DNA of 48,212 nt, counting the filler, from Catajapyx aquilonaris (taxonomy: Eukaryota): assembly GCA_000934665.2 (NCBI GenBank). It is 2 parts of 2 records of this genome, joined end to end, with 100 filler letters (N's around TTAATTAATTAA, not from the genome) between each part and the next. Parts side by side here need not be neighbours in the genome. Positions count along the whole stretch, not along the records: positions 24,181 to 48,212 come from JYFJ02005579.1; 1 more part is not named here. The stretch is one strand, 5' to 3'. The first letter of the stretch is position 1. Every line of letters begins with the position of its first letter. The notes beneath the pieces were generated by a model, which did not search any database, was not told the origin of the DNA, and saw only the letters and a list, made by a program, of their open reading frames with translations. This document shows, piece after piece, positions 21,969 through 48,118 of the stretch. The position numbers and the translations under genes are program-made.

Positions 21969-22012
<44 letters not shown>

Positions 22013-23179: not shown

Positions 23180-23291
23180 TTACTTTTGAACGAGATACAG
23201 TAACTGCAGTTTGCTGTATAATGTCCACTATATTAGACTAATAATACAGGGTGTTAATCCTAAGCGTGTCACCAGAAAAGGTGGTGGTAGA

Positions 23292-23602
23292 GGGCACAGG
23301 TGTGAGCATTTTTGCATAAGGAACTAGGGGTCGGAAACGCACCCTCTCACGCACACATCTGTACCATTGACGCTGACAATAAAACGTCTCACTTCCATTT
23401 CTCCTGACTTGTGCCCTAGCTTTCCCGGACACTGACACACTGTTGACAGTTCTGTTCTACCTGCCAAGCTCCCCTCACCCACTCGGCCGCGTGCTGCACG
23501 CCTCTTGCACACTGCCTGCCGCAAACTTGAAAGGGGCGTAACTCTGTGAGGGTGCGTTTCTGACCCCTAGTTCCTTATGCAAAAATGCTCACACCTGCGC
23601 CC
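23292..23602. mobile_element. MITE with ~55-bp TIRs
   Basis: GGGCACAGGTGTGAGCATTTTTGCATAAGGAACTAGGGGTC ... GACCCCTAGTTCCTTATGCAAAAATGCTCACACCTGCGCCC. It is followed directly by an unpaired hAT-like end, CAGGGCCGGCCCTAGG. Confidence 0.8.
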
Positions 23603-24080
23603 AGGGCCGGCCCTAGGTGGGTGCGGGGCCTAGGGCAAGAACTAAATGCGGGGCCTATTCTCCGTGAGTGAATTTCTGTACAACACGAATTGCGTATCCA
23701 ACAATTTTGTTGGCTGACTTTCTATAATAACGTACAACTGAGGGGTGTAGACAGTTGCGTTAAAAAGATTGAAATTGCAAATTTTAAACATTTAATTTTT
23801 AAAATTATACCCCTTTATTTTTCGCTGGTTTTCACGTATGTTGTAGCCCTACATGTGAACTACATGTGGCCATATCAGTCCTGTTGGCTAGTATAATACT
23901 AAGGAAGATTGGGCCTCAAGCAAGACCCCCTCCATATATGTCGTCATTATGATGGGTACACTCAACATGCAAATCGCCCCACCTTGCTCAGTGCAAATGT
24001 TGATATTCAAGTTGGGATGATCACTGGTGAGAGTACGACACATGTAAGACTCCTTTGGTAGCCCACACCCCCCTCCCCAA

Positions 24081-24180
24081 NNNNNNNNNNNNNNNNNNNN
24101 NNNNNNNNNNNNNNNNNNNNNNNNTTAATTAATTAANNNNNNNNNNNNNNNNNNNNNNNNNNNNNNNNNNNNNNNNNNNN
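24081..24180. other. Artificial 100-bp contig spacer
   Basis: Exactly 44 N, then TTAATTAATTAA (stop codons in all six frames), then 44 N. Confidence 0.92.
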
Positions 24181-24888
24181 CCTTACTGATTACCGAGGGA
24201 ACAGGAAAGCAATTACCTGGCCTGTCTGCTTACGCCTTCATTCACTGCAGATAAGGGACTATGAGATCATAAACCTAGGGAGGAGGGTTGATTAGTGTTC
24301 CTCCTGATGAGCTTAATGCTGTTACCATCTCGCAACCATGTCGTTAATGTGTCGGGAGTTCATTATGTAAGCTTATGCTTCTTATTTGGGCCGATTGCAA
24401 ATATGATGTTGGGTCAACGTAATAATGGATGGGATGATTAATGCTAGAAATCAATTTCGGAGGTTGTATATTTTTAGTGTGGGTAGTTCGCGTGCAGGAC
24501 TGGCATGCGGAAGGTCCTGAGTTCTTGCCCCTGGTCGCTCGTATGCGATGGAGGCCTGTTCTTCCAGACGAAAGTGCCCAGCTGGCTTCCTTTCATGCCG
24601 CACAACCATGTCGTAACTCTTAAACTGGCGGCATTTGGACGGTGTTTCTCCATACCACAGAGTGGGAGAATCCTTTCGTCATAATAAGTTTCGCAATTCT
24701 TGGAAGGTGCCAAAAGCAGAGCCAAATCGGATGACTTTTATGGCATACCGACAATGGGATCCGAATTTGTCATGAATTTTTTTTTGCTTGACACTTTTCG
24801 TGCTGTCACTGCATGCAAAAGAAGGAAAACCAAAGCACCACATGCCCAAAAGCTGGCCGCGACATAAGACTCATAGGACGTCCCCATG

Positions 24889-25174
24889 CACTCTTAACCA
24901 TTTACCTTCTCTAGAGAGGGTAATAAAGTGGCCATTTTTTACCTTACATTGTAGGGTAAATATTCTTGGGTAAATTGATTATAAGGTAAATTTTGCATAT
25001 ATTACCTTAGAAAATAGAGGGTAAAAAGGGCCTCTTTTTTACCCTCTATTTTCTAAGGTAATACATGCAAAATTTACTTTATAATCAATTTACCCAGGAA
25101 TATTTACCCTACAATGTAAGGTAAAAAATGCCCACTTTATTACCCTCTCTAGAGAAGGTAAATGGTTAAGAGTG
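24889..25174. mobile_element. Fully palindromic MITE with CACT termini (CACTA/EnSpm-like)
   Basis: CACTCTTAACCATTTACCTTC...GAAGGTAAATGGTTAAGAGTG with ~140-bp near-perfect arms and TG on both flanks. Confidence 0.85.
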
Positions 25175-28100
25175 TGCAACTGACCAGCAGACGATAACAT
25201 GGAGGAAATGAATTTTAAAAAACCCTCTAGAAATTTATTGCTCCAAGCTTTGTGACAAACCATGTTTGGTTAAAATATTACTTAAATGCATCGATTTTTG
25301 CACATCATTGTAGGGAAAAAAGACTATCTCAGTATTTTTTTCTGTGTGAAACAATTTTTTTAAACTACTCCGGTACTGAATAAGTCAAGATTTAACCTGG
25401 TAAGCAGATAACGTTTGCACACATTCCTGAATGATTAGCATTTTGTTGCATGAAGATTATCTTCATTATCACTAACATTTGCGGCGTCTTTGCAGGGTGT
25501 TTCCAAACTCACGAGGTAGTCTAGGAAGCACACTCCTTGTGAATATCTTACAAAATTGCTCTTCTTGATTCTGCCAGTTTCAGCTTCATAAGGCGTAGGA
25601 AGATAATAGCATATTATTTTTGTTTATTACATGACATGACAGGGAATATCCTGTGGACTAGATGAATCGGCTAACACGCTTGGTTGGGGGGTGGCATAAC
25701 CCGCAGGATGTCACTTTTTATTTATGTGGATATACTTTTAAAAGCCAACATGAATCAAAATCGCGGTGCTCACCTACTAGAATTTTCACCTTATAAATTA
25801 TCAATTTAAAAAACTAAATCAGAGCGGGAGGATGGGTACACCTTCAAGTATTAGCAGAGTATGCATCACATACATCACATGCATCTCACGTTATTCTGGT
25901 TGTATTTTACACTTTTCATTTACAGTGCTCAATAAGTTACTGTGGGTGTAGACCTACATGATCACTATTGCCAGCAATACACAAAGTGATTCAGTGAGTA
26001 TAGCTAAATAATATCAACCTAAAGCATTGATTAACAGAAATGTTCAGCAAGGTTGTTGACACGTATAAAATTCAGAGAAGGATTTTTCAACAGGTTCCAA
26101 CTGTGAAACTACTACCCAAGTCGATCTAGCCCTATCTACATTGTTGTTTTATTGAGCGTAACTTTGATGAATGGGTTACATAAATCAGTGGTGGTCAGAT
26201 AAGCATTTTCCACACTACTGTTATGTTGAGTTTATCACGAACAGTACATTAGTAGTTAAACGTACAATCCTAGAAAATGTCAGTTATCTATAATGCAACT
26301 TATTCCAATGTTTTTATTTGCATTGCAATTAATTCGTCGTTAACATAGATTCAAATTTTCCAGTTGTAAAACAGGTACTGTACAATACTCAGATTGCGAT
26401 TTGCATGGCCAGTGATCATCTCATGATTATGTCTGAATTATTTTAAAAAAATTATCTTCAGATCTGACTTGTAGTCAACCATGCCATTGCTTTGGTCTAC
26501 ACAGTGTAGGCTACTGTAACACAATATATTTCAGGGAGTCTTCTCTCTCCAACCATCTGGAAAAACAAAATTACAATTGCATGTCATGAAAAACTCATTC
26601 CAACATAATGGCCATCAAGTGGCAGTAAAACTAGCCAAAATGTGGGTATTAAAAATAAGCTGAGCATCAGTAGACCTTAACTTCCTCCTCAACATATACG
26701 TACAATACAAACGTCCCCTATAGATGGTGATGGCCTATCACCAGGTTTGGTGTCCAACTGTACTTGGGGTATTTTGAACACTCCTGCTGTCTATAAACTT
26801 GCTCTTGCCCGTCTTGTGTTTCAGAAATGCGCATTTTCTGCGGCCCAATGCACGGGAAAGAAGGGTGGAAAATTGGCTTCCGTTTTCTTCCCTGATTACT
26901 ACCGTTGCTCTGCACGCAAGTTTCAAGGGGTGATGTCACATGATTGGCGTTTACCCATCATTTTTTGAATGATGAGGCTAAAAAAAGAGCGGTATTTCCT
27001 CCCATTTTTCTGGATGAGAACCCGCGAAAAACCTGTACCCCAAGAGTTTTGATTACATAACCTCCAGACTTTTACAAGGATACCACCGCTGAGACGCCAG
27101 TCCTCGAGGTCCTAACAAAATTACTATCATCCAAACTCGTTACTGTCTGAACTATTCGAACTGATCCCTTTGCGACCGCCCGCAAGTTTCGGCAAACCCC
27201 GCACGTATATTCCGGAGTATCAATTAGTCAGTTGAATTCCGCAGCTTCTGTGATCATTAGCCAAAAAGAACAACCAACACATCATCCATCAACCGCTCTA
27301 CTGACTAGGACTGACATGCACACTATATGTTACATTTAAAAAAAAGAAGCCAAGTCATCAACAATCACGTCCGGCAGGGTCCATCCAAATCCTCTAATTG
27401 AATATAATGTTGGGTTATTTCCATCCGTAGGCGCCTCCAGAGGCTCTTGATAAATTGCAGAAAACGTCTCGGGCAATAAGTTCCCGTAATGAATCTCGGC
27501 CATAATTATTGCTTGTCAAGACAAAATCGATCGCTTTTCTCAGTTGCAATGACGTTAAGAGTCGCTTCTCAACACTATTACCCCAACGGCAATGTTGGTT
27601 CAATGGCGTTGCGTCTGGAATAAAAGCAGCAAAAAAAAAAAGTGTGTTCACACACACAAAAAAAGGAGGAGCATAGGGTGCAGTTCGCTCTTTTAAACTC
27701 AACATGGCGAAAAATGTAATCCGGATTGATGTCAGGACACTTCCAGGTCTCTCCTCCATGGACCTAAGCCTCTTTGCTGCCCCGAAGCCAAAATGGAATC
27801 GACGTTTCATTCATGTGTCGGACTAAGCTCCCCAATATTGAAAACCCGTCCTTTTATGATCCACCCTATACGATCCTTCTCTCAACTTGTTTTCACGAGG
27901 ACGTGCCAGAATATATGTATATAAAAAAAGGATGGTAGTAACGCATTCATGGCATGTGGCCAGAGCTCTAAATCAAAGCGTCATTTCAAAATCAATCTGC
28001 CGAATAGACACTTGATACATGTAAATGAAACCCGGTTGCATCTACCCATTCCTTGTCATTCCACTACTGGCTCATTAAACTGTAATTGGCAAAAGCCCCA

Positions 28101-29727
28101 CCCGATCTCATTGAACCAAATAATTATGGTACGAACGACTTATTGTCCGGTTTCCCTGCAAATATGAATATTTATCGGCGGTGTGATGAGTCCAATCACT
28201 TCATATAACGTGTGGGAGGACTGTAAACCGTTAGAGTATTAATTTGTATATCTTCAGCTATTGCATGTTGATTTCGCTCGAGCCCGCAATTAATTGGGGT
28301 GTGGTATGTCCAATTTTTTTCACACCTTGCTCCAGCCTGTCTTTTTTACAACGACAAATCCTTCAGGCAAAATAACAAACAGGTGATTGGGTATATCATA
28401 AATCAGTATTTAAGCCGAACGGTATGCCGCTTTGAGACAGTTCGCGACATTGAAGAAATGCCAACCGTAATTAATACGGTACATGGCGGAATATAAAGTG
28501 CATCCTGGACACCAACAGGAAAAGGCAATCTGCGAATCTGGCATCGACATGAGGTCCCTCGTGTAATACCACTCAATTGAAAGGGGGGGGGGGACCATTA
28601 TGCGTCGAGGCTGCTGGTGTTTAACACTATGTACGCCCAGCTAAAATCCGTGAGAATCAGCAGATGAAAGTGAGTCATTTTCTTGCCCTCTTTGAGCAGC
28701 TTTGCGCACCACAAGCACTTGGGGACACATGAATCCATCATGCCAGATACAGATTAACGTCAGAGGGTACAAGGGCATGGGATATTTTTTTTGAACTGAT
28801 TTTGATGTAGCTGCGGACTTGCAGAGCAAATCTGGCTGACATTCCACACTTTTTTTTAAACCAACGGAAATGTACTGGGCAAACTGGCAGTTAGTCGTAG
28901 ATAATAGGGTAATATTTCGCGCATAACTGTACATCCTTGCCTACTTTCGATTCTAGCCGCTTGATTGCAATTTAACCGCGGCTAAACCCCTTCCTTGTCC
29001 GTGAAAAATTGCCGCCACGCCTATTTGCCCCCTCCCGCGGAGATGGCCAGCATTAATATTCGTGGTGCATAGCTGAATAATGATAATTTGTTCTACTGTG
29101 CGCAGTTTGTCTGCACAAAAGTGCCTAAAAGGCTCCTGGATTCTTTTACTGGCAGCAATCATAAACTGATTTGGATGCCTATGAAAAATCGGACCTACAC
29201 GTCGGACCGAAACTAATGGGATGTAATAACATACATTAAGGTCTCATCAATATCAAGTGGTGGTCCGCTCTTGATGTGAGTGGCAAGAATTCTTTCTCAG
29301 ACCAAAGATATCCTCCAATTACTAGCACGCAAAGTTATGGCTCAAAACATGTATAAACCACAGCCCGTGTGTGTACCTTCTGGAGAGTTATGTACTTGCT
29401 GAACTTTCTCTCAGAGCGTCTAATTTATGGCAGGTTGGGTTAGAGAACTGTGATATTGTCACCCTGCTGTGGTTTGTCCTCACTTGAGAGCCTGCCTCTA
29501 GCAACTTTTTTTTTTTGCACCATTCCCCGCAGTTCTTTTCGGGATGAAATTCCTTCGGACAATTGCAGGTCATGGAGACCCGGATAGTTCCTTTCCATTT
29601 CTTTATTTGTGCTGCTGGTTCCGAAGGTTTCGAATCCGCGGTGGCCCATTAGGCGTAGTTTCCTTTCTCTCTATCGTATCTGTTGGCATTACTGGTGGTA
29701 ATTCCTGGTTTGTGTTTGCCATTTCAG

Positions 29728-32700
29728 GGCCCTGTCCCGGATGGGCTCCATGGCCACGGTCGGCGGCTCGCCCTCCATGTGTGAGCAGCTGCAAGGTTCC
29801 CTCATCAGCAAACAGATCCAATTCTGCAAGAAACACCCAGTATTCATGGACAGCGTGGTCTTGGGTGCCATCCACGCCATCGACGAGTGCCAGTTCCAGT
29901 TCAGGACCAGGAGGTGGAACTGCTCCACACTAGAAGACACCACCCATTGGCACAAACCCTTCCGAAGGAAAAGTGGTAATTTTGCTCGATTCTCACTCGT
30001 TGTAAAAACTGTAACCTTGCTCGAATGTTGATGTTACGCCGAGATTTTTTTTTTTTGACCCCATAAGAAAATATTCTATGGACATGAAGCCAGCTCAACT
30101 AACGCGTGGGAATGGAATCCCTGCCCACTTCACCCTTACTCTCATTCCCCAATTTGTCGTTAACCAAACTGCCCATCCAATACGGGTTGCAAAAATGCTT
30201 CTTTTCCTCCTCTGGTTCCTAACGAGGCGAAATGGACCAAAGGAGTGGAAAAGTCGGAGAAAAGAGCTCGGGCAGTCGTCTTGATCCTCGGAAAAAGCTT
30301 TTGTTGGAGGGCAGGTCGAGGAAGGTCTTCCGGCTCCGTTCCAGGAGGACAGAGTGGCAAGTCTTTCTGGAAAAGAGTAGGGGAAGGAAGGAAGGAGTGG
30401 AGAGGATGGGGGGTTAGGCTTTTTCCGCTTGGCTGTGCTGCTGGATGACGAGCTGTCGGGGCTGTCAGCCGCATTCTGCCCCGCTCAGCCCCTCATGACA
30501 GCCTCTCAGCCTTGCTCCACTGCGCTTCTATCAACCATTTACCCCCCTCCGCAACACCCTGCTTTTGCCCCCCTTCCCTACACTCACCCTCCCACACACG
30601 CACACATATACACACATCCAAGCCCCATGCATTGGCAAAGAGATGCACTAAGTGGTCTACCCCTCCCGAACCACTCTTTCCACTCCTTTTTTTTCCACAT
30701 CGCGACTCATCCAGGCTATTAGTCAGCTCGGTTGTTCAAGTGCTATTATTTGCCCTCTTCTGCTTGTTGACAAATCTGTCAGGATTTCATTCATCTGCTT
30801 CAGTCTTGTTTTAAGGACAAAGTTTGCGGAAGAATTTTGATAGTTTGATAGCCTTCCGAGAGCGAAACTTGTTCATTAAGAACCTCGGAGACGTTACTAT
30901 TTGCGCACAAAAAATAGACAGAAATGTAGAAGTAAAGATGTATCCTGGCCCGACGCAACCATCAACACACATCCAAGGTTTATGTCGTACTGTACTGTAC
31001 AGTACTGAACGTTCGTACACGAGTACTGGTGGTTGTATAACGGCAGGATGCGACTTAATTCGTTCAAAATTTTTATCAAACAACACCAAGCATTTTATAT
31101 TTAAAAGCAAGCCTGCGTAGAGGGACGCATACCTTCCAGGATACATATTGCTTGAAGTCAATTACATCAGTAATAAGACAATAATTCTGGATATACTCTG
31201 GTGCTCAAAAACTCACTATCTTAAGAAGTTGTCGGATTTATCATGGAACACCATGTATAAGTGGGATAAATAGAGTAATCCTCACCCTCGCCCAGTGTCA
31301 GCTGTGAAGCGTAGGGCATTTATAACAAAGGGCAATTTTGATGTGTTCACGTCAAGAGGCTAATGTGACACATCCGGTGAGCGCACCTAGATTCCCAGGT
31401 TACACATTTTACACACATGATGCTCGTGCAAATAATTCTAGCTTGCTAACGGAAACTTAACCATGACACTTCGATTTTTACCCTTGGAAAATGAATAATC
31501 TTGACCCAGTTCACTTTAATTGAGTCCATTTCCGATCAAGCCAAGCATTAAACATTGACCAATTAAGGCCAGTAAATTTACGGCCCTTCAATAGTTGCAC
31601 AAACATCTGGACATTTTATAGATTTTTGCAAATAAATGTCTCAAATTCAGTCCAATGGGAATTTGATTGCTATGTATTCAGGACGCCAATTATTTCACCC
31701 ATGTGTATAAAACTTTATATTATCGATAAAAAAATTCAAGCGTTGTTCAGCTTTGATATCAGATGGCCATCATTGTACTGCCGGATATGATAAGCGGCTT
31801 TTTGTGAACATCTCACCATCTGTGTCTGGTTTAACACTGGATTCCCGACAAAAAACAATATTGACTCTCCCACGTATATGACATTCACATAACCCCATCA
31901 CCACCGTGTCTGTACGAGACTAGAAGTCATACAAAATGCAGAACCACCACCCACAAAATAGGTCAATAAAATGCCTTCCTTACCCACAAACACTGGCCTG
32001 CATACACAATTAATAGTTCAGTTAAGCCCACTTTTTACTCCCATTTCTAACCCACCTTACACGACCATCATGCGCTTAAAGTCCTCTCGATGACAGCATT
32101 AAACGACACTCTCAACGTAGCGGTATATAAAAAAAGCTGCCGGACCTCGTGACAAAACCTGCTTGCCATACAAAAGGTTTGGTGCGAAGACAAGTTGGGG
32201 TTCAAAAATATGAAAAAAAAGTACTAATTCCAAATATTTGTGAATTTCAGTAATGACGTATATGTTTGGATTTTTTTTGATACACGTATTACCAATCACT
32301 GAATTGTGTGCCCAACTTGTTCATACACTTAACCATGTCTATAAGCTTCAATTGTCAGTTGATAAGGTCCTCAACAAAATCCTGTAAAGTAAAAGGGTTG
32401 AAGTCCTTCCCCTGCCGGAGCTCTCTCGGCACTTCCCCTATTAAAAATGCTAGCCCGTATTAACGGCCAGGAAAACAAGACGTCGAGAATAATCAGGTAG
32501 CTGACAAGTTGAAAGCATGGGGCTCAACCGAGCGTCGTATCGGGTATAAAATGAATCGAGATGGACGCCTCTCATGTTAGGACCCGTTCCTTGCTGTCAA
32601 ACCCCTTGTACAGCTTATTCCTGGGCTTAATTGGAGATCTAAAGCGAAAGTCTGACCAGTTTTCTGCAGGTTAGTAGAGGAAATTGGAACTGACATGTTT

Positions 32701-34941
32701 TTTTCTTCTTCTGTTTTGACACAGAGGAAGGTGCAGCACCGGTCGAGGAAGGTCAGCTTCCAGGGACGTCTTTGGCTGGAAGGGTGGAGCGCAGTCCAAA
32801 AACCGCTCCTGGAGGTAACAACATTCCAGTACTAAAATGGGAGGCAGAATAATTAATATGGTTAAAAAAATTTAGTTCCTTGATCTTTGAAAATCAGGGC
32901 AGGGAGACTTAATTGCGCAGACGTGAATCATTCTATATGGATGACATTTTATAGGTAAATACCTGTTATTCGAAACTAGTTTTTTGTGGTTGATTGCAGG
33001 GAAGAAGTTCAACTCGACGAAAAGCTCCGGGAAAAAGAAAAAGTCCAGTAAAAAATACCGACCTTCATGGGGTCCCTATCCAGTAGTGCCCTCAGGTCAG
33101 TGTGCTTTTTCTTTCTCTCTCTCGCTTTATAGCTTCAAGTCTTTTTTGCCTGAAAAGCTGACACTTTCACCTGCCCGGCCGTGGATATAGCAGTTGCGAA
33201 TTTGTCAAGTACATTTGATGTGCTAAAGTGTCAAAAAATTTTGGTGTGCAGAAAAAGATCGGGGTCGAGTTCCTAAGCTAACCCAAATAAAAACCTGTTT
33301 CCAATTCCTTTTGGTGAGAAACGACGGCCGCATTCGAAATGAATCATTTCTCGCCCAAAAAGCGCGAGTGCAATTAGCTAATTGGTTCCGTTCGGAATTA
33401 ATTGTCAGTAATGTATGCTGGCATACTCTTTTCTCTCCAATCAAACAGCGCAAAAAAATATGCGGACCAGGTCATTATTTTGCACAAGTGTGTTATTTGC
33501 TTGTTTGTTTTGTGCTTCGCTTGCAGGCACCCGAGAAGCTGCGTTCGTACACGCAATTTCCGCAGCTGGTGTGGCCCATGCTGTCACGCGTTCTTGCAGC
33601 GGTGGTGAGCTGGAGGACTGCGGTTGCGATAGGACAGTCCGTGGTTTGAGTCCAGCCGGATTCCAATGGTCCGGATGCTCTGACAACATCGACTTTGGGA
33701 CATCATTCTCCAGGACATTCGTGGACGCCCGGGAGCATCGTCTCAGTCGAAAGTCTGGATCCACACTGGCCCTCATGAACCTTCATAATAACGAAGCAGG
33801 AAGAAAGGTTGGTGGCACACCAGGCCCAAAAGCACTCCAAGTCTTTTCTGAAGCAACGAAGCAGAGATGCTCTTATTGAGATTTCCTGTCAAGTGGAAGA
33901 GACCGGAGGGAGAGGAGATCCGTCCTTCTGGAGATGCTCGTCAAAATGGGGAGCTTGAGGGCCGGATTTCCTATCCAACTACCCCTCTTCCTCTTTTCTG
34001 ACACTGTGCTTCCTTTATGCACTTGATTTAGCCAGGGGGTCCCCCTTTCATGCCGGACCGACCCTTCTGTTTTCGGGTTGTTGTTTGCCAAACAAAGAGT
34101 GAATGGACTTGTGGCTGAATGACTCCACAAAAAAGTTTCGTTGTTGTGCATGTTTTAGTAGTTTTTTAAAGTTGTTAGGATAGCAGAGTGCTACACATGA
34201 ATAGTTGGCGAATCACAAGTTATATCTGGCTCATGTCTCTTCCAGGTGATTGAGAAGAACATGAAAATTGACTGCAAATGCCATGGCGTGTCTGGATCCT
34301 GCGAGCTTAAGACGTGCTGGAGAGCAATGCCCAATTTTAGAGAGGTGAGAATATTTTTCTGCCTTGCAAAACCGCGAATTAATGGAAAATCTCCAAGTAA
34401 ATATCATCAGATATTGGATCTGATATTGAGTTTATACATATGGGCCTGAGAATTTCGTGAGAGTCATGAGTCGAATGATTTGCAGATTGGCGAGCTCCTG
34501 AAGGAGAAGTTCGATGGGGCAACTGAAGTTGAGCAGCAGAAGATTGGCTCCAGACGACAGCTGGTTCCTCGAAACGCCCAGTTCAAGCCACACACCGATA
34601 CGGATCTAGTGTATCTGAGGCGATCACCAGACTTTTGTGAATTTGATGACAGTGTCGGTTCTCTTGGCACTCATGGCAGAGAGTGCAATAAGGTAGGCGA
34701 TTGGGGACTTTGAGATGGCAAATACTTGTACTTAAATATGATCCAGTGTTGTACATGGATGGCGCATATTTATTTCCAGACATCCAAGGGAATCGACGGA
34801 TGTGACCTTCTGTGTTGCAACCGAGGCTACAGGACACATAAGGAGAGGCGTGTGGAGCGGTGCATGTGCAAGTTCCATTGGTGTTGTTATGTGGAGTGCA
34901 AAGAGTGCATTAGAGAAGTGGAAGTTCACACTTGCTTCTAG
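29728..34941 (+). CDS. Wnt4: Wnt4 ligand; spliced, signal-peptide exon not located
   Basis: Exons 29728-29975, 32725-32814, 33000-33095, 33527-33807, 34246-34344, 34486-34692 and 34780-34941, all GT-AG and in phase. Motifs [70 protein letters not shown] (acylated Ser) and the Wnt4-typical [35 protein letters not shown]. Confidence 0.95.
32725..33095 (+). CDS. Wnt4: Two extra symmetric phase-1 exons of Wnt4 (90 nt and 96 nt)
   Basis: TTCTTCTGTTTTGACACAG|AG...GGAG|GTAACA and TTGATTGCAG|GG...TCAG|GTCAGT. They translate without stops as [30 protein letters not shown] and [32 protein letters not shown], joining GTREAAF. Confidence 0.75.
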
Positions 34942-36153
34942 GACAAGTCATAAACATTTGCATTCCAGTGAATGGGATCACACTAAGGACAAGGCATGCA
35001 AGTCGTGTAGATAAAGTAGCTTCAATGGACTCTCTCAATCCCACTATTTCTTCTGACCGTAAGTAATGTATGAAGCAGTGTTCATCTGTCTCGACTTTTG
35101 GCCCCTCACCATGTACCTATAATTTATGTATAGTATGGATGTGCGTGGATGTTTTGTGTGCGTGTGTGTGTACAGGGTCCCACTTGGTGTTGAATCAACG
35201 TCAGGTAGTGTTTGTTACCTTGTAGATTGTACATTAATGGCTCAGCAAGAAAGGGATATGTGAAAATACTGATATCTCTGCTGAGAAAATATGTGGGTAT
35301 GTGTTTTTTGTTATCAAATTGCTGTAGACAATAGAATGGATAATAATCTGGATTGTGAGTGACTTTGTAACCTTCAAGTACTCAGCTGTCATTGTTGTAA
35401 TAACAACATTGTGGAAAACACTTTCATTCCTGAACTTGATTTTTAATCTGTCAACTGTCATGGGTCGAACACACATGATCTGGGTATGTCCATAAATTAT
35501 TATGTAATGCATTTGAGAGTGCAGTCTTCACTTTGCATTCAGGGAAAATTACAACACTAAACATAGGTGATAAATGTTTCACAATTTACATAATAAAGAG
35601 TGGTTCTCAATCTATTTTGTCCAAGTCCTTCTTTATTCCTGGAATTTGTCATTTGGATTTGTCATGCATGTTTGGGCAGGTAAGACACTTGTCACACACA
35701 CATACTGCCATGTAATTTATGGACAACCCTGATGTTGAAATTACACAAGTAGAAAATTAAGGTATACTACTGATCACTTTATTACAGGAAATGGTGAAGG
35801 CCACTAACACAATCAATCAGAAAAATGCAGGATACTTTCCCACATAGCAGAGTGCACCAACAGGCAGCTTTGCTTGCAGGCAGAGGTAGGGATGTCATGC
35901 AAGTACTCAAACCACAACTCCCACAGGCAACACAATGCTGCATTTGATTCCCTGTGACCTGGGAGCCAAATTGTATCTTAAGTGATTTAGGCCCAGCCTT
36001 TCACCGGGCAATAGATGCAGAAATACAGTGAAACCAGTGTATAACAGAATCACCCTGTTCAGCAAAACATTTTCTGAAATAGGCAAATTCCCACTATCTC
36101 TGACAATTCTAAACTAGGAAATTAGGTGGGTTAACATGTCTTGAATTGGTGCC

Positions 36154-36597
36154 CAGTGGTGTATTACCCAATAGGCCGAGGAGGCACGTGTACAGGGCAG
36201 CAAATTTTAGGGGGCAGCAAAATTTGCCTCCCTAGACTCAAAAGAAATTTCTCCTCGATAAAATTTTTCGCCTCCATGACATTAAATGTCATGGAGGTGT
36301 CAAATTTTATCGAGGAGAAAATTTTGACACGTGCGAAAATATATGTAGGCCCTACTTTATATGGCGTCACCGTTCATGTGCCGCCCCAAGATGAATCGCC
36401 AGATGCCGGAGACCAGTAAGGGCGAAAGTCGCATGCACCCTTCCCCGCTAAGAGAGTGGGGATCTGTGCAGGATCTACAGGCGACTTTCGCCCCTTCTTG
36501 TCTGGGCATCGGCAAATAAAAGCAGCATAAAAGTGTATAAACGCCAAGGTGAAATGAACCCCCTCACCCCCCAGAAAAAATCGAAATGACGCCCCTG
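36154..36597. mobile_element. Composite hAT-like MITE region with internal hairpins
   Basis: CAGTGGTGTATT... and ...AATGACGCCCCTG ends, with internal near-perfect hairpins at ~36238-36327 and ~36418-36496. No TSD match. Confidence 0.5.
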
Positions 36598-37754: not shown

Positions 37755-40700
37755 TTAAATGGAAGACAAGAAGCGATTAACCTGTTCACTTGTGAGTGTT
37801 GTGAGATATTCTTCAAAAAGGCTATACGTCAGGTGTCTGGCAATCATCCATTCCAGACTTTTAATGAATCCTTCCCTGTTTCGTACAAACTTCAAGTGCT
37901 TGGTGAATGTGTGGGACTGCAGCGGCATCATTTGCTTGATTGTATCATTCACTTTGGCACGTATACTACTGGCAATGCAATTGACATCTGTCAAGTTTTG
38001 CTGGATCTCATACTTGTGGCCTTTATCCTGAAGCACACGGCACAGAGACTTGATGTAAATACTCCCGGTCTCCTTGTTTCGGAACGAGGTGAAACCAGGA
38101 ACAGTGGACATGCTCATCAGATGGTCTGAGAGGTCAGGGCACAATGGTTGATTCTTAGGTCCAACGTTGTCTTCTTCACAAGGAATCACAAGTGCTGGAA
38201 TGAAACCAAATTTCAATTAGTTTCAAAAAAAGTACACAAACATCTGGTTGCCCAATGCTGCAGAGAGCAAATGAAAATATATACACACCTCCACAAAAAT
38301 CACATTTGTTAGTTTTTATTTATGGCCTACAAGCACTTAATGGAAATCCAGTTTTAAAAAGCATTTCACCTCTTGGAAATCAGATGAGCCTGTGTTAAAT
38401 TGCAATAGCCAGGGGTTGGTCTCCTTGCCTTCACATTATACGAGGGTTGATTCAAAAGTCATGGTGCGTATTTTTTAATTCAAAAACGGTAACACATACA
38501 GAAATGAACTTTGCTGAGTTTTGAAGATCTGGCGATGACAATTTTATCTGGCATATAGATGTCACCCACATCGTGAGGGGGATGGAAAACAAAAGGGGAT
38601 CGTGACCCCCTCACCGCACCATCGCCCTAAGATGGCCCGAGCCTGCCGTGCTTGGAGCTGTTGGACACTGGCTGCATGCTGGACACTCGAAGATGGACAA
38701 CACTGGAGCTTGCGTTCGAGTGTGGGACAAGTCAGAGCACTATGACCGGAGCCATGTGTCATCCATTGCCACAGACAGTTTTTAAAAAACCATTGCCCTC
38801 AGTGCGATAGAGTTCCAAGCAAGGGCAAAATGGTAGCACTTTTGCACCTCAAAGAGATGGCGAGGAACCAGTGAGGATGCCAACTTCCTGAGACCTTTCA
38901 GTCTTTCAGAGTCCTAAGCATAGTGCTCTGACTTGTCCCACACTCAAAAGCAAGCTCCAGAGTTGTCCATCTCCGAGTGTCCAGCATGCAGCGTCCAACA
39001 GCTCAAGCGTGGCTGGCTCGGGTCGCCTTAGGGCGGTGAGGGGGTCACGATCCCCTTTTGTTTTCCGGCCCCATCGCAATATGGGCGACATATATATGCC
39101 AGATAAAATTATAATCGCCGGATCTTCAAAACTCAGCAAAGTTCATTCCTGTATGTGTCACCTTTTTTGAATAAAAAACACGCGCCATGACTTTTGAATC
39201 AACCCTTGTATTTACATGTAATTTGAATTATTCTCCCTACAAGACGTAGCAGTCTCTTCTTATGTACTTTGACCAGGAAAGTGATTATCCTGCATATCCA
39301 AAAGGAGTATTTTAAATTGCAGTTAATACTTTTATGCTCATATGCACAATAAACACTTCCGCAACACAGTGTTGGACATTAATCGTGTCGTACTGCTGGC
39401 AACATTTTCCGAAGCGGCAGAAGAACGAATCGACTCAATGGAGTGAAAGCCATGCGAGCAAGATTCGTTCTTCCACCGCTTTGGAAAATGTCCCTAGCAA
39501 TACGACATGACTCAAGTCCAACACTGTACCATTATGATTGTAGCCTGCAGTGCAAAAGACCTTTGTAATGGTCTGTAATAGTTCTGCTGTAATGTAACTA
39601 CTCAAATGTATGAGTAAGTAATGCCACAGTGCAGCTACAATTTCCGATCCAAAGACGGCTTTGTTGATCGCAACTTTAAGGTTAAAATTTTCTATGGACC
39701 CCAGATGTGCGCATACCATATTCCAAATAAAACCATTTCTCCGTCACTCTCCTATTAAAAAAAAATTCGAGCGCAGATTTACAAGCAAATATAAATTTGG
39801 TATAAGGACCTATAGACAGCGACCAAAATTATGTGTAAAAAATCTCAAAACACTAGAACACAATCGTCTTCATGAGATATCCAAATGAATTCAGGTCACT
39901 ACATAAGGGTTAACTGCATCAAAGTGACATTAGAAATACTAACCTTCCTGACTCTCTTTGCCCTGGCAAGCTTGAATGAAGAACATTTTTGGCTTCTTAA
40001 TCAGAGAACGGCACTTTTTCCCAGTAAATATGTTGATAATTTCATCGATGCTTACTGAAATACAGTCTGATCCAAGAACCTCACCTGGAATGCAACAAAA
40101 AATTAGTTAAGGTAAAAAAATAAGATAAATAAATAAATAAATTAATTAATTAATTGATTTTTAAAAAACCTGTAGCTCTCACCTCGAAGGCCATGAGTTA
40201 AGATGCAAACTACCAAACTGCAACCAAAATCCACAGTACTTGCAAGAGACGACAAGTTTTTTGTCATGCTGTTATGAGCCTGGTCTTCATTTATTATGAC
40301 CTCATAGCCAAACATTTTGAATGTTTCACGCAAATTATCCCTGTCAACATCAGTTCCAATCCTGTCTTCCAGATTCTCATGAATATACTCCTGAAGAAAT
40401 AAAATGACCGTTGTAAATAGAGGATCAAAATTAAGCGTCACTGTTTAATAAACAAATGATCAACAAATCCGGACGTTATTGCCCACCATGCGTACAAAAT
40501 TAATATATTTTTTCACACTACCGAATTATTTTAAAATACAAAAAAATACATACATTTCCTTCCCATTCAATATCAGGCTCAAATGTGCGCTGGTTGATGA
40601 TAATACAGAGGCCAGCATTTTTTGGGTCCATCTTGTACCAACGAGTTGGGTCCTCTCTATTCTCAATTGGTGGAAGAGATGTGCAAGAAGCTAGACTGTT

Positions 40701-41420
40701 TACCTCAGAATTCTGTGACTGAAAGCTGGTAAGATTCACTTCTGCTTCGGACAGCCTTTCTTCTCCTTCCCCACATGCAGCCAGTAGTGACTTGAAGTAC
40801 TGGCTAATGTTTTGGGGGACACCAGCTTCCTTCAGGGCTGCAAACAGCCCTGAATAGTCATAGCAATTTTGGTTTTGTGGTTTTGTATGCTGAGATATCC
40901 ATTTAAGAAGTGCCACTTCCATCGGATCAGACAGGGCGACTCCCATTTTATACTTCAACTTCTCTTCTTCCTTCCGAGTCACATTGTTGCACAGATAAAA
41001 GAAAGCCTTCCTCAGCCTCTTAATTCGACCCCCATGAAAACTGTGGCTATCAATTGCAATTTTTGCAATATCCTTTGCAACATCTGACAGTCCTGCATAC
41101 CGTTTAACTAGCTGAAAGTTCTGTGTGAGACACAGACTCTCCACCATTTTGTCAGTCCAATTACATTTTTGGTCCTGGGCCCATTGCAAGAGTGGTCCTG
41201 GGCCGTAACTAACCTCTTGCCTACAACTCTCCAAATAGACAGCCATCTTCTGGAGGGCAAGGTCAACTTCGTTCTCAGCATCATAAAGAAGAAAAATCAG
41301 TTTCAGCTGATCCTCCTCATCCAATAGAGAGTCAATGGATTTTACTTGTTCCAAATCAATTGGTGTTCGCGCCAGACGATTATGGGAGACTGTAACAGAG
41401 TCTTCTTGAGATTCTGTCAT
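37755..41420 (-). CDS. Dredd: Initiator caspase, caspase-8/Dredd-like (~551 aa)
   Basis: Exons 40554-41420 (DED-like prodomain LKLIFLLYD..ESLCLTQNFQLVKR, then YKMDPKNAGLCIIINQRTF), 40183-40390 (RIGTDVDRDNL..VCILTHG), 39944-40084 (KPKMFFIQACQG) and 37755-38194 (STVPGFTSFRNKETGSIYIKSLC..QMMP..HTFTKHLKF). Catalytic His-Gly and QACQG are intact. The symbol reflects family similarity, not a phylogeny. Confidence 0.9.
38441..39208. mobile_element. mariner-like foldback element in a caspase intron
   Basis: TA|CGAGGGTTGATTCAAAAGTCATGG ... CCATGACTTTTGAATCAACCCTTG|TA, with inverted arms of ~300 bp. Confidence 0.85.
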
Positions 41421-43539
41421 CGTGCCTGAAAGTAATTATCAACTGTTAGAATAAACTTTTTTCATTAATTTTTACTTATAAGGTACAGCACCAAGGTAAT
41501 CAACACTTGCATCAAAACCACACAAGCCCAACCTTGACAGGGATAGTATGCCACATGTGTTTTAAAATGCAGTCAAATAAATGGCCACGAACCTTTCTTG
41601 CATCGACGCATTAAATATACAATGTGTTTTATGTACTGCACAAGATCACTTTGGCTGACACTTGGTATGCATGGATTTTGAAGGTGACACCTATTGTTCA
41701 CAATTTCACACAGAAAAAGAAATGCCTACAGCATTGAACTGCCTCCCTATCTGGAGCGATTACATGATCCAGCAGAGAGTAAATCATGAACACTAAATTT
41801 GGTTCACATCTGCTTTTATTTACAGATGTTAAGTGAAAATCCTCAGGTTCGACTAAGGCAAGTATAAACTAATGTGTTGTGTAGTCTGGGATGTGTCAAA
41901 GAAGGGCAAATCATAGGTGGAAAAACAAGTGGAAGTAACGACATTTAAAATAGATTTTCCTTAATTCAGTGTACGACCTCCTGCCTATGCATTGTAAAGT
42001 ATTATTCGGTATCTGTCATATCATCATGTAGTGACATAGGGCAATTTACCACAGAAGCACAGGGGCTCATTGGAAAAGCCTGGTCATGTAAATTGCCCTT
42101 AAAATTAAACTATACTGCCATTTTCAGCCACAGTAATGCTTTCCGACGAAAGTCGGACTCCGGACTGCGAGACACAATAGACGACACTTTCCTAGCAAAA
42201 TCATCTGGATTTTCAGTGCTCACGCGTAGGCTACAGTACATGACAGGAGACATTTACCTTAATTTTTTGAACTTTACCATCCCATTGTTTATAACAGTTA
42301 TTTAGGAAGTGTAAATGAAAGTCTCACGATGCAAAAGAAGACAGTACAGTATGCAGTGAAAAAGACCAAACAGCTACAAAAATTAAGTACGGTTTCAAAT
42401 ATTTTAAAGAATGAAATTTTCATGCACAATAATTGCATAGCTAGCCAACTGAGACCAACTCGTGAAGTTATACAGATAGCTCAGGTAACTATTAAGTCAG
42501 AATAACTGTAACATCACACCTAGTGTTAAAAAACCCACTTCCTCAACCTTTCACAGCCTCAATTTAATTTTGTTAATTACATCCAAAACACTTGTCTCAC
42601 CTGTGCAAATGCAACAAGTTACTGTCAGCACAATGTCAGGTGGCAAATACAATCAGCTAGCACAGCAAGGAGAGTTTCAATCCTTGCCTGAACCGTGCCA
42701 AAACTTGGAGTGAAGCTGCAGGCAAATCTAGGCTACGTATTTCACAACTACAGGAAGAGAAAGAGGAGAGAAAATAGATTCACCGAGGGATTTTCTCCTC
42801 AATCCAGAGGGATTTCCCCGCAGATGTTTGCCATTCAGCGGTTTACACATGCCACCGCCAGCGACCTTGCAAAAAGAAGCCAATGATATCGCATAATTAA
42901 TTGCGATCAGCCAATAGCAGAGCAGAAGTGAATGCAGCTTGTCCTTAGTAGTAGAGACGAGGAATGAACCGGACCGTTACTTGTCTGAACCGGTCCGTCC
43001 CGAGTGTGCGCATCGGAACGGATGGACCAGACTAGACGAGCACATGTTGTGAAGAAACATCGGCGGTCTTGGGGTTGATTAGGCCTGGATCCCATGGCTT
43101 ACCTGCTCTGCCTGGGTGCTCGAACCGTGCAGCTCTTCAGGCTGTACAGGCCGGGGCAGGCGGCCGCGGTGGGACACAGGAGCACGGGTGAGGACATGCC
43201 ACTCCACGGACCGCCACAGACTAATATTAGCATTTTTTTATGTAACACAATGTCATCTCTTATGCGGAGTGGCATAATAGCGGCCAGACAGGTCACCTTT
43301 CACTTACATGGTTAACTGGCAGGGGGAGGGGGAACTTCCGAAATTACCATGACACAAACACTTGCACCCTTCTCATCCATCCATCCCTGCGTATCAATCC
43401 AGGCACTTTGTTGTAAGGTTCCAGACATGCTACAGTATAAATAATAATGGTCTGTGCAAGTGTGAAGTACGGACTATGCCCAATTTAGTATTTTTAATTT
43501 TCTGAGCGCAACTGTAGCAGTGTAGGAAATCTACTCACC

Positions 43540-43830: not shown

Positions 43831-46800
43831 ATGTTCTCACTTCTCACTAATCGGGCCGTTGAAGACTGCTGGAGGGCTAACGTTACACCCTCCCCCGGCG
43901 ATATGGTGCGCTGCATAGGTACCCCAGGCTGCAGGCCTAGAAAAGAGCGAGCGAAGCAAGTGGTTTTCTAGTCCTGTGTCCTAGGAAAATGCAAGCGGAG
44001 CGAGTGTTTTCCTAGTTAGAGGTTGATCTCACATTGTAGGTTTAAAACCTCTGGAATGTTGTTACGCTACAAATACATCTGCTCTCAAACTGTGGACTGA
44101 CCTTCTTAAGCGAAGTCGGAGAAGAACTAAAAAGAAGCACTCCTTTGCTGAACTAATCGAAGGTAAGATTTTACTGATACATCAGCAGTTGTTTGATGTG
44201 ACATGAATCAGCCACCATGTAACAACAGCAATAATAATATACATACCCTTTGTATCCCGCCTTTCCCCTCCCCTTCCTCTCTCCCTTGTCCTTCCCCCCA
44301 ATTGTGCAGTACCAATGAACGTAATTATAGAGCAATGGCAATGTGTATTCAATTGAAAACATCAGACAAGCAGAACTATATCATTATTTTTTTGGATTCC
44401 AGATTTGAGAAATTGTAAAATGAAGCCTATCGTACGATGGAGTGATTTTCATTAGTTTTAATTATCATTTTCAGTAAAGGCAACCACAACGAATGACACG
44501 AAAGCTTCTGTTAGTAAACTGAAGGCAGCACAAGTAGCACTGATCAGTGACAGGCCTGAGATGTGCCTCAGCAAGCTAGGGAACCTAATGAAGAGTCCAG
44601 AGGTCCCTTCAGGAATTTTAAAGCATGAAGTTAAAGCACAAGCGCTGGAGGTCTCTGTTGTAGATGATCTGAACTGGGCAACACATGACTTGGAAGAAGT
44701 TGAGTCTGAACTGGAGATGTCAATGGCCAATGATCCTGCTACCCATGGTGACCACAAATTCAGTGATTTGGAAGCTGATTCAGAAGAACCTGCACTGCAT
44801 CATGCACAAGAGACTGTTGAGGGAGCCTCACAAAGCACTTCTGTACCAACAAAATCCAAGCAAGTGATGCTGACTTGAATTTTACAGAATTAAAAGTAAC
44901 TGAATATCTATTCACAGAAACAACCCGGAAACGAAGAAGAGTAAAGCTCCAGTTATAAGTAAAGCCAACAGAGAGAAGTTGGCTAAGACCAAGTGGGAAG
45001 AACTGGAAAGGTCGGCAAAGGAGGCAACTTTATCAAAGACTCTACATTCTTATCTTGATCTTTGCGTAAGCAAAACTTGAGGCTGTATGATTTTTTGGGG
45101 GGAAATCACCATTTTACAACTGAACTTGTGATTTTAAAAATGAACTGGTCTGAATAATACATCTGCCTTTTTTTCAGATCCACAATGGCCAACTGCAACA
45201 GGGTGTGCATACCTTTTTCCACTATCGGTGGCTTGGAAAGCACACTCAGGAAGCACCAAAAATCAAAGATGTTGACTTGTTCAACTTGCTCATGAAAGGA
45301 TTTGTACGAAAGGTAGGCAAACAAGTTCGACCTTTCCTACAAGCAATTATTTTGATTCTAAAATTATTGTTCATTTTGCAGGGTCAACTCATGCGACAGA
45401 AGGAAATGCTGAATATTATGAGGGACGATGGAGTCAAGCCTAATTTAGCTACTTATGCAGCCATCCTAATGTGCTTGGGAAAATGCCCAGTTCTTCCAGC
45501 AAATGAAACTTATTTGCAGAAAATCATTACCGATATGGAAGAAGATGTGAGATACGCAATTACTGTTGTCTCACCAAGTAATCTGATGGATATCTTTTGA
45601 CAGGGCTACACAAAGAATTGCTTGTTCAACAAATGTAAATATGAAGGGAATGAGAAGGACCTTCTTCTCAATGCTCTGCGCAGAGTGGATCCAGCTTTCG
45701 TGCCGGATGTGACTGCTCCTGATTCTCATTATGTCTGCAGGCTTCTTCATAAACTCAATGACTCTTCAAGGATCTATAACGTAAGTTCCATAAAATAACA
45801 TGTTATCCGTCTTTGTGGGACAAGTACCTGTTAATTTATCAACATTTTAACAATGTAATTTTATTACTAGATTGTGTGAATAGTCAATAATTCTAAGGGG
45901 GTGACCAAAGATGTGAAAATGTTGATATTGGCCATTCTACAACCATGGATAATGATTCTGCAGATAAACAGAGGGCTGACTGTAATAAAATTAGGATATC
46001 AGGCTTATTGGATAAAGTTCGTAGCACATTGTGTGGTGGGACATTCACATTACAAAATTGACACGTTAAATATTTCATCCTGACATGAATGTTTACGGTT
46101 CCATGCAGAGTTAGACCTTCCATGAAAGAATATGTATTATTTTTTAGTACTCATCACCTGCTCATGGAGTGGTAACCACAGAGGACCTATGGAAACTAGC
46201 TACTGAACAGTTTCACATGGAGAAGCAAGGATATGTGACAGTGGAGTCCATTGTGAAAGTACCTGAGACTGAACATGTGAATTACTTGGTATGGCATAAA
46301 TTGTATTGGCCAGGCATTTGTTGATATTAATATTCACCTGGAATTTTGTAGAGAACTGTACTTAGTGAGACTGAAGGCAGGTGGTCCAATGTGGTACTGG
46401 AAGCACTAGAGAAGGATGTCAGTGCTTTAAGGAACCAGTATGCTAACGGAAGGCTTAAGAAAGTGATGACCATCCTTCCGTACATGACAGCCCTCAGGCC
46501 TACTGAATACAAAGATATTGTGATGCAGGTATGCTGAGTAAAATACAACCTCTGAAAAGTGTCTGTTATTCAATTTCAAGATACTTTTAAAAAATTGACA
46601 AATGGTTATATCTGTGAAGCAGTGGAGCTATGAACAAGATTGAATTTTTCTGGTTCATTCTCACTTTCTGATGTGGAACGAAGTATCCTGGGAGTGGTAC
46701 TAATTGCCACGAGGCATGATTTTCAATTTGGTTCTTTTTATTTTATTTAGGAGGTACGCAAACTAGCGCAGGGATCTGAGTCCTACACCATGAGCACCAG

Positions 46801-47838
46801 GAACCTGTACAGAATGTTGGGTGAGCAGGTCATGGGGAGGTACCAGGTGAAACACAAGCTGGAATTAGGGATAATGCAAAAATTGGAGAAGGTGTACAAT
46901 GAATACTGTGATTGGTATCTCAGCAGCAATGCTGATTTTCAGAATCAGAGACAAAAGTGGCAAGACTTGATACATAAATACCAATCAGGACCAGACCTGG
47001 TAAGCAAATGGCAAATGTGGTATGCAGCTTAAATTTTTAAATGTTACCTTATGGCAGGATATTGCTGAGAAAGTGTGGCCAGCAAATATCTTGGAAGGGA
47101 TTGGGAAGTTTTTGTACAAGATCATCATTCATGACATCAAAATTAACCCTGAGCTTTTCAAGAAACACAAGAGGAACAAGTGAGTGTGATGAATATTAAT
47201 TTAATGAGATTGATTTTAAAGTCTGATTTTCACTGGCACAAAAATGTTAATTATGTCAATATCATGTACTTTGCAGTTATGAAGTGCCAGCCTTCTACAA
47301 GATATATCGTACACATGGCCACAAAATCAGGGAGGAGATCAAACCTCATCCTGTCCTTGTTCGCCTGTATGAAGAAGCTGCTGGGAAAGAGCTTGTGTAT
47401 GAGTCATGTCTTCTCCCAATGGTGTCTCCTCCCCTCCCATGGATATCAATTCAGACTGGTGGTTACCTTCTCTCCATTGCCAAGCTAGTCCGTTTGCCAT
47501 TTCAAGCACACCAGCAGAAACAGCGACTTGAGGCAGCTTCACCTCAGGAGCTATACCCATCATTAGACTCACTGAACCAACTTGGGTCCATCCCGTGGCG
47601 AATCAATGAACCCATACTGGATTTAGTGATTCAGGTTTTTAACAACAATGGAGATGATTCACTTGGAATCCCACCACCACCATCCATGTGTCCACAACCT
47701 CCTGATATGCCAAGTGAGTCAGCAGACAAACAGGAAAGATACCAGGCATACAGGCAGAGGATGTTGCTCAGGCGGAAGAAGGCTGAGATGCACAGTTTGT
47801 GGTGCGATGCATTGTACAAGCTGTCTTTGGCCAATCAT
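43831..47838 (+). CDS. POLRMT: DNA-directed RNA polymerase, mitochondrial; spliced, 3'-partial
   Basis: Exons 43831-43918, 44040-44162, 44475-44859, 44918-45065, 45178-45312, 45382-45546, 45604-45780, 46148-46288, 46352-46528, 46751-46999, 47058-47179 and 47277-47838, in phase. PPR-like FNLLMKGF..GVKPNLATYAAILMC and LPMVSPPLPW..GGYL..LDSLNQLGSIPWRINEPILD..EMHSLWCDALYKLSLANH. The start exon is less certain. Confidence 0.93.
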
Positions 47839-48118
47839 GTAAGTTTTTACTTACCATTAGACCTCATTGGGGAGGATTCTGCAGATTTTGAGTTTTTAGT
47901 TATGACAATGAAAAAAAAATGAAGTGGCCATATTAGTCCAGGGCTTTGCTGTTTGACATACAAAAACCGGCAAGAAAATAGGTTCTTTAGCAATTACATG
48001 TACAGTAAAATGTGCATAATGTATCGAAAGTATCCAGAAATCACAGTTAACAGAAGTGAGCCTGTAATTATTGAATTCAGTGTTCAAAGCAAAAATATTT
48101 CTCCTAAAGATTCTTTTA

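Follow-up and report, generated by a model that had tools for sequence, protein, structure and literature searches.

Does the Wnt4 gene of Catajapyx aquilonaris encode an additional segment inside the Wnt fold, and is such a segment an oddity of one genome or a trait of a lineage? We addressed this question in a 48,212-nucleotide (nt) stretch of DNA from assembly GCA_000934665.2 (hereafter the window), whose + strand carries the Wnt4 locus at positions 29728-34941, within the part derived from record JYFJ02005579.1. Two short exons in a large intron of this gene, here called exons A and B, would add the segment between the RWNCS and GTREAAF motifs. Our reading, to which we assign a probability of roughly 0.75, is that the gene is the Wnt4 orthologue of a pancrustacean and that exon B, probably together with exon A, is the local version of an insert with a single origin. 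The species would then belong to the Pancrustacea, probably to the hexapod side of the group. The insert itself would be free of Cys, carry an N-glycosylation sequon, be disordered as predicted, and split the ancestral 15-residue linker between the RRWNC and TREAAF helices. It would end in a Lys/Arg-rich stretch followed by an anchor, (F/W/L)-G-P-x-P-[VI]-V-x-x, in place of the ancestral FGKVVTQ.

The identity of the gene is supported by its five core exons, all of which are flanked by AG and GT and match the Pfam wnt family (PF00110; E-values 6e-14 to 4e-31), jointly tiling profile positions 4-304. The GTREAAF exon, used as a query, matched 346 proteins at E ≤ 0.001 among 502 candidates. Among the best 120, which were listed, the leading matches were copepod-like transcripts and named crustacean Wnt-4 proteins, at 72-76% identity. 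Krill, lobster, amphipod and barnacle proteins joined the set through a profile search with 15 Wnt4 sequences of crustaceans. Every named protein in the two match lists is annotated as Wnt or Wnt-4, those among the best matches as Wnt-4. In a tree built without other Wnt subfamilies, the window sequence nests within the pancrustacean Wnt4 clade. By these matches the gene is Wnt4, and the tiling of the wnt family together with the crustacean Wnt-4 proteins heading the match lists bears out the same assignment in a preliminary description of this DNA. One core exon carries the motif CHGVSGSC, which we take to be the Wnt lipidation site. Exons A and B had no Pfam match in the domain search of the Wnt4 exons. 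The signal-peptide exon (exon 1) was not located by a pattern search for ...TGG-[CT]T|GT, whose sole result, 25861-25901, was rejected for its implausible 13-residue frame.

The intron that contains exons A and B spans 3551 nt. The upstream exon (exon 2) ends ...AAAAGTG|gtaatt and the downstream GTREAAF exon begins cttgcag|GCACCC, in phases that fit both candidates. Exon A is bounded by the acceptor tctgttttgacacag|AGGAAG and the donor CTGGAG|gtaacaac, and exon B by tgtggttgattgcag|GGAAGA and CCTCAG|gtcagtgt, with a 431-nt intron separating exon B from the GTREAAF exon. The spliced model has 393 amino acids with both exons and 331 without them, and either version stays open to the terminal TAG. 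The preliminary description had claimed two stop-free, phase-1-symmetric exons with good splice sites that could be skipped together without a frameshift. We verified the CAG acceptors, pyrimidine tracts and GT donors, the frame arithmetic agrees, and translation reproduces its two insert peptides letter for letter. Its wording of an "acidic plus polybasic" insert holds for the polybasic part, exon B having 10 Lys/Arg and no acidic residue, whereas "acidic" mildly overstates exon A, which has five Glu against three Lys/Arg (net charge -2).

To place these exons among chance alternatives, we enumerated all stop-free, phase-1-symmetric AG..GT segments of 45-300 nt within the 3551-nt intron. This gave 211 candidates, of which three survived a splice filter (pyrimidine tract of at least 0.65, a YAG acceptor, and a donor score of at least 6/9): exon A, exon B and a segment at 31763-31873. 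The last was rejected as an exon for its unpaired Cys, its intron-like GC content of 0.43 and its lack of homology. The same intron also holds a purine-rich, low-complexity tract with several open frames on both strands, within which a Lys/Arg/Glu-rich frame at 30227-30412 stands behind a good pyrimidine tract; as a third cassette this frame was rejected for its GAG acceptor, weak GTTAGG donor and absence of homology. A log-likelihood score of codon usage, which had some 1,560 codons of the window as its training set and discriminated poorly, gave 0.20 for exon A, 0.07 for the rejected segment at 31763-31873 and -0.15 for exon B, the negative value being due to the Lys run of exon B.

For exon B, homology provides the coding evidence. 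When 26 crustacean Wnt4 proteins were compared by tblastn with positions 20000-36000 of the window, a 16-kb search space, exon B was matched by P0002 and P0118 (E = 0.003) and by P0003 (E = 0.019), and its sequon NST aligned with the NAT of P0002. A tblastn comparison with 80 Wnt loci from a scan of metagenome contigs added four weak high-scoring segment pairs (HSPs; E = 0.08-0.31). These alignments mark exon B as truly coding and as conserved.

A wider survey of Wnt4 relatives indicates what this exon belongs to. Two boundary motifs, RWNC and x-x-R/K-E-x-x-F, were present together in 132 of 171 collected proteins, and the linker between them was at most 20 residues long in 92, 21-59 residues in 3 and at least 60 residues in 37. 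The long-linker proteins are crustacean-type in 34 of 37 cases, five of which are salmon-louse isoforms. P0047, P0078 (sperm whale) and P0124 (starling) lack the anchor, look mispredicted and were not accepted as insert carriers. After two duplicate and two skip isoforms of the salmon louse had been dropped, the insert set comprised 31 sequences, namely 30 crustacean-type database sequences and the window. The database inserts range from 62 to 261 residues, and the window, at 79 residues with exon A, lies toward the short end; its linker would have 49 residues without exon A and 17 with both exons skipped.

The composition of these inserts is constrained. No Cys occurs in any of the 31, an N-x-S/T sequon is present in all except the krill sequence, and the anchor P-[VI]-V stands directly before GTRE in every one, with its Pro and Val invariant in alignment A1. 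Lys and Arg together make up a median fraction of 0.36 of the 25 residues that precede the anchor, as against 0.16 elsewhere in the insert; the value for the core is 0.167. The window insert follows this pattern, with no Cys, the sequon NST, 10 Lys/Arg among the 25 pre-anchor residues (0.40) and the anchor WGPYPVVPS, which reads VGPYPIVPQ in decapods, LGPYPVVSP in copepods, MPYPVVPP in fairy shrimps and FGPNPVVPG in water-flea-like transcripts. Outside the anchor, the insert sequence cannot be aligned across carriers. The carriers span copepods, a barnacle, krill, an amphipod, decapods, fairy shrimps and water-flea-like transcripts (named genera: Eurytemora, Lepeophtheirus, Tigriopus, Pollicipes, Meganyctiphanes, Hyalella, Portunus, Cherax, Homarus, Thamnocephalus and Artemia), and many of them come as unbroken cDNA-type contigs some 1.3-2.5 kb long, indicating expression in these relatives.

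The linker has only 14-17 residues in Parasteatoda, Trichonephila, Tachypleus, Strigamia, Chamberlinius, a Narceus/Glomeris record and Euperipatoides, as it does in mollusc, brachiopod, echinoderm and vertebrate Wnt4. The preliminary description had implied that the insert is unique and had named its being common in arthropod Wnt4 as grounds for refutation. The alignment divides the arthropods and their kin on this point: all 30 crustacean-type database sequences have an insert with a Lys/Arg cluster and the anchor, whereas chelicerates, myriapods and onychophorans lack one. As far as these alignments reach, the insert is a lineage-wide trait of crustacean Wnt4 and not peculiar to this genome. 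A partial Daphnia pulex model (P0037) jumps from ...GRQLPTI to AAFVHAIS, and it seems to lack the exon or exons contained in the water-flea-like sequences P0028, P0026 and contig L066.

Comparison with individual orthologues places the window close to this crustacean type. Its model is 57-65% identical overall to Wnt4 of Thamnocephalus platyurus (UniRef A0A0S1NFD6, P0032), Artemia franciscana (Wnt-4a-like X2, P0044), Cherax quadricarinatus (P0118) and Pollicipes pollicipes (P0126) and to the water-flea-like Logan sequences P0002 and P0028. Like them it has, between RWNCS and GTRE, a Cys-free insert that combines a sequon with a Lys/Arg cluster and closes in the G-P-x-P-[VI]-V anchor. Unlike them, it has an exon A with no recognisable counterpart and an exon-2 tail unusually near the ancestral linker length, and its lineage lies outside the sampled crustacean orders. 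Canonical Wnt4 proteins of vertebrates, molluscs, chelicerates, myriapods and onychophorans are 53-58% identical to the window in the core and share both flanking helices as well as the two hydrophobic residues (VV/VL) that close the linker. They differ in their 14-17-residue linker (e.g. STLDSLPVFGKVVTQ) and have no insert.

The phylogeny and the exon layout both bear on the origin of the insert. In a tree of 323 core columns, from which the insert columns had been removed, 24 of 24 insert-bearing sequences formed one clade (Shimodaira-Hasegawa-like support 0.96), which argues that the insert arose once in pancrustacean Wnt4. The window sequence is sister to the clade of fairy-shrimp and water-flea-like sequences (0.94) and lies outside that clade (0.995). 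Among the metagenome loci, 13 genomic-looking ones have a core exon that begins G-[TI]-RE behind an upstream frame that is short or un-Wnt-like, and an upstream anchor exon was found in 2 of 18 loci examined. In the water-flea-like L066, whose anchor exon ends ...SNPVVPG, it reads ...SSPFGSNPVVPG followed by G+GT, 439 nt upstream of the core exon. In the copepod-like L070 it reads ...VPLGPYPVVSP followed by G+GT, 363 nt upstream. The best phase-1 acceptors would make these symmetric anchor exons of 168 nt (L066) and 351 nt (L070), the acceptor of L070 being less certain, and the L066 boundary is consistent with the cDNA-type protein P0026. The window's anchor exon likewise ends in phase 1 (...CCCTCAG|gtcagt) just before the GTRE exon, so that the order of phase-1 anchor exon, intron and GTRE exon is, in the loci compared, conserved.

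The insert is also consistently placed within the Wnt fold. In phmmer alignments of P0002 to the solved Wnt7a and Wnt3, the match breaks exactly at the insert and resumes with PVVPGGTRE against PVLDKATRE. With 65% identity to the window model, P0002 was used as a stand-in for structure prediction. Its AlphaFold2 model, based on a 72-sequence alignment, reached a mean predicted local distance difference test score (pLDDT) of 84 and a predicted template modelling score of 0.80. Residues 61-120 have a pLDDT of 40-58 and no secondary structure, and they lie between a helix at 31-51 that ends before RRWNC and a helix at 126-148 that starts at REAAF. By this model of a relative, the insert is predicted to form a disordered loop with an N-terminal-domain helix on either side, and the earlier placement of the insert inside the Wnt fold between RWNCS and GTREAAF is upheld by the phmmer breaks and by the model. 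A hidden Markov model built from 45 short-linker Wnt4 sequences aligned the VVPS of the window to the profile letters 'vlkq'. This agrees with the proposed resemblance of the end of exon B to FGKVVTQG and supports WGPYPVVPS as the likely counterpart of the ancestral linker end (...VVTQ/...VLKQ), a correspondence in keeping with an exon B that is included as a rule.

Several observations weigh against this reading. The taxon labels of the unnamed JGI/Logan sequences were derived from similarity, the modelled protein is the relative P0002 and not the window's own Wnt4, and water-flea-like sequences have a Lys/Arg fraction near the anchor of only 0.12-0.24, their cluster lying further upstream. 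The binding of heparan-sulfate proteoglycans, which we prefer as the function of the insert, is read from composition only. The exon-2 tail is already of ancestral linker length, and the form lacking both exons fits the short-linker profile slightly better than the long form does (552.7 versus 546.4 bits). The remaining points concern exon A. Four of the six frames are open across it, which makes openness weak evidence; the rejected segment at 31763-31873 passed the same splice filter; exon A had no match among those listed in the tblastn comparison with the 26 crustacean proteins; and it had no HSP in that with the 80 metagenome loci.

These last points are what would be expected if only exon B were real and exon A were a chance open stretch with splice-like edges, leaving a linker of 49 residues. 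Exon 2 indeed joins exon B in frame, and the product scores 543.2 bits against the short-linker profile. A linker of 49 residues, however, would fall below the minimum of 62 among the 30 database inserts. Moreover, exon A, with a GC content of 0.61, resembles the core exons (0.47-0.58) and differs from intron sequence (0.33-0.46), it ranks 9th of 211 by a crude codon score, and its CAG acceptor has a pyrimidine tract of 0.76, joint-best among the exons of the gene, opposite a GTAAC donor scoring 6/9. We thus regard an insert made of exon B alone as possible but doubtful. Exon A is probably a coding exon, as splice sites, GC content and insert length suggest, and would be included in the Wnt4 of this species.

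A related question is whether the exons are constitutive or are regulated cassettes, with tissue- or stage-dependent skipping (junctions 29975>33527 or 29975>33000) producing a canonical-length, less basic Wnt4 besides the long form, the two differing in matrix retention. Exons A and B are both phase-1-symmetric with lengths that are multiples of three, the skip product has no stop, and the anchor exons of L066 and L070 likewise appear phase-1-symmetric. The skipped linker of 17 residues comes close to the ancestral 14-17, and the length of the exon-2 tail together with the better profile score of the skipped form make a canonical-length isoform structurally plausible. The one precedent is Wnt-4 of Lepeophtheirus salmonis, for which RefSeq isoforms X3/X9 have the full insert and X14/X21 lack exactly its last 68 residues (EGNG...PYPVVSP) before GTREMAF. 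This is, as in the window skip, an in-frame loss of the anchor-bearing end right before GTRE; the salmon-louse forms differ in being predicted models, and in the window skipping is a possibility by frame compatibility.

The salmon-louse gene has many predicted isoforms (P0016, P0018, P0022, P0023, P0025), two of which skip the anchor-bearing end; others add about 60 residues after NNEAGRK or delete the conserved core, and look non-functional. With such isoforms deleting or interrupting the core, X14/X21 may themselves be splicing noise. Among 30 crustacean models from the databases in which both boundary motifs occur, 28 have an equivalent of exon B, the exceptions being these two predicted isoforms. 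With the anchor in all crustacean-type models but two, it can be argued that exon B equivalents are normally included. Regulated skipping is accordingly an unlikely account of the window exons, and exon B would normally be included in the Wnt4 of this species.

As to what a conserved insert might do, its freedom from Cys, its sequon, its positive charge and the disorder predicted for it suggest a loop that is exposed to solvent, glycosylated and able to bind polyanions. The basic cluster of exon B resembles XBBBXXBX, a Cardin-Weintraub-type heparin-binding pattern, a likeness in sequence only. The conserved positive charge may hold the secreted ligand on heparan-sulfate proteoglycans or on some other polyanionic matrix, which would tune the range of Wnt4 or its use of co-receptors. 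Such binding is the function that we favour, and as a putative one. A fuller version would make the insert a matrix-retention module of pancrustacean origin, a disordered, glycosylated and polybasic loop on phase-1-symmetric exons that binds heparan-sulfate proteoglycans, is switched by skipping between short- and long-range Wnt4 (at which X14/X21 and the canonical length of the skip product hint), and belongs to a Wnt4 that survived into the hexapod lineage; we consider this combination improbable.

Another possibility gives the insert no specific function: a permissive surface loop would have tolerated a fast-evolving expansion, and only the anchor, which packs against the fold, would be constrained. 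The variation in insert length (62-261 residues), the failure of alignment outside the anchor, the disorder predicted for P0002 and the lack of a homologue for exon A would all suit an unconstrained loop. Set against these are the retention of the insert in all crustacean lineages sampled and the shared features of 0/31 with Cys, 30/31 with a sequon and a Lys/Arg cluster at twice the median density of the rest. Such limits on composition suggest that charge and solubility have been under selection, and they lead us to consider a functionless expansion rather unlikely.

The preliminary description had also raised a proprotein-convertase site. Cleavage of the loop would then leave the ligand in two non-covalently associated pieces or inactivate it. 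Lys/Arg-rich stretches occur in all inserts, and R-x-[KR]-R is found in 15 of 31. Motifs of this kind are, however, expected by chance in Lys/Arg-rich sequence, and they are absent from the window, Thamnocephalus, Artemia, Cherax, Homarus, Meganyctiphanes and the water-flea-like sequences. The window's sole candidate, the minimal R-x-x-R site RVER, lies in the unconfirmed exon A. Cleavage is consequently the function to which we give least credence.

Two known systems offer points of comparison. Short basic cassette exons also occur in other secreted signals, namely exons 6 and 7 of VEGF-A and those of PDGF-A/B, where inclusion controls matrix retention and range. Exon B might work in a similar way if it were alternatively spliced. 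The analogy differs in that these are unrelated proteins, the Wnt4 segment is internal to the fold, and its heparin binding and alternative use are putative. Drosophila Wg has a lineage-specific, non-conserved loop in a Wnt ligand, situated in the C-terminal half of a member of a different Wnt subfamily, in agreement with the more C-terminal position given in the preliminary description, and without sequence relation to the Wnt4 insert.

The neighbouring genes provide further context, including some indication of the lineage (Table 1). Downstream of Wnt4 lies part of a gene for mitochondrial DNA-directed RNA polymerase (POLRMT), which among named relatives matches best the springtails Orchesella and Allacma (63-64% identity over a 153-residue query fragment). 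In a 316-column tree, which was built without branchiopod, copepod or remipede sequences, it groups with the two springtails (support 0.79) within hexapods (0.86). On this evidence, and with a Wnt4 that is sister to branchiopods but falls outside them, the genome looks hexapod-related. Between the two genes, on the opposite strand, is a caspase-8/Dredd-like gene with a 305-residue exon that matches Dredd_N and, weakly and below the cut-off, Dredd_2nd. Peptidase_C14 is matched by two further exons, one of which has the active-site motif QACQG. One of its introns contains nested inverted repeats with arms of up to 146 nt and 90-95% complementarity, forming a palindromic element of about 770 bp that is probably a transposon remnant. 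A second mirror-image pair of reading frames lies nearer to Wnt4.

Table 1. Wnt4 exons and other features of the window, with the evidence for each
Feature	Position	Strand	Description
Wnt4 exon 2	29728..29975	+	N-terminal helices and start of linker; ends in phase 1; Pfam wnt PF00110, E 6e-14, profile 4-59
Purine-rich tract	30160..30735		low-complexity, in large Wnt4 intron
Exon A (90 nt, phase 1-1)	32725..32814	+	probable variable middle of insert; splice sites, GC, insert length
Exon B (96 nt, phase 1-1)	33000..33095	+	N-glycosylation sequon, polybasic cluster and conserved anchor; homology
Wnt4 exon, starts GTREAAF, ends ...NNEAGRK	33527..33807	+	Pfam wnt, E 4e-31, profile 62-151
Wnt4 exon with CHGVSGSC motif	34246..34344	+	Pfam wnt, profile 153-184
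Wnt4 exon ending ...GRECNK	34486..34692	+	Pfam wnt, profile 185-252
Last Wnt4 coding exon, ...EVHTCF	34780..34941	+	stop TAG 34939-34941; Pfam wnt, profile 253-304
Mirror-image reading-frame pair	~36135..36420
Caspase-8/Dredd-like gene	37755..41435	-	Dredd_N (PF23725), E 4e-15; Peptidase_C14
Palindromic element	38438..39211		in caspase intron; probably transposon remnant
POLRMT gene, part	44462..47922 and beyond	+	RPOL_N (PF14700), E 1e-23

The hexapod affinity of the genome bears on the history of Wnt4 in arthropods. According to PMC9459440 and PMC5111886, Wnt4 disappeared in insects or ahead of the hexapod radiation, and the full-text literature searched yielded no report of Wnt4 in non-insect hexapods. 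Should the genome be that of a hexapod or of a very close relative of hexapods, its bona fide Wnt4 would revise the stated loss before the hexapod radiation. Similarly, we found no description of a crustacean Wnt4 insert in the accessible parts of the full-text literature, including PMC8711157, PMC8579682, PMC7616481, PMC9459440 and PMC5111886, a scope that leaves aside shrimp and crab cloning papers in subscription journals. The insert itself has been visible in databases for years, and the window carries a local instance of it. Taken alone, this instance matters only modestly, and would matter more if its exons proved to be skipped in a regulated way or its loop to bind proteoglycans. The broader pattern may merit note, as an insert of single origin in one defined Wnt loop that has been kept in every sampled crustacean group. 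If its charge cluster binds proteoglycans, the insert would give a Wnt a range regulator of its own, built into the ligand.

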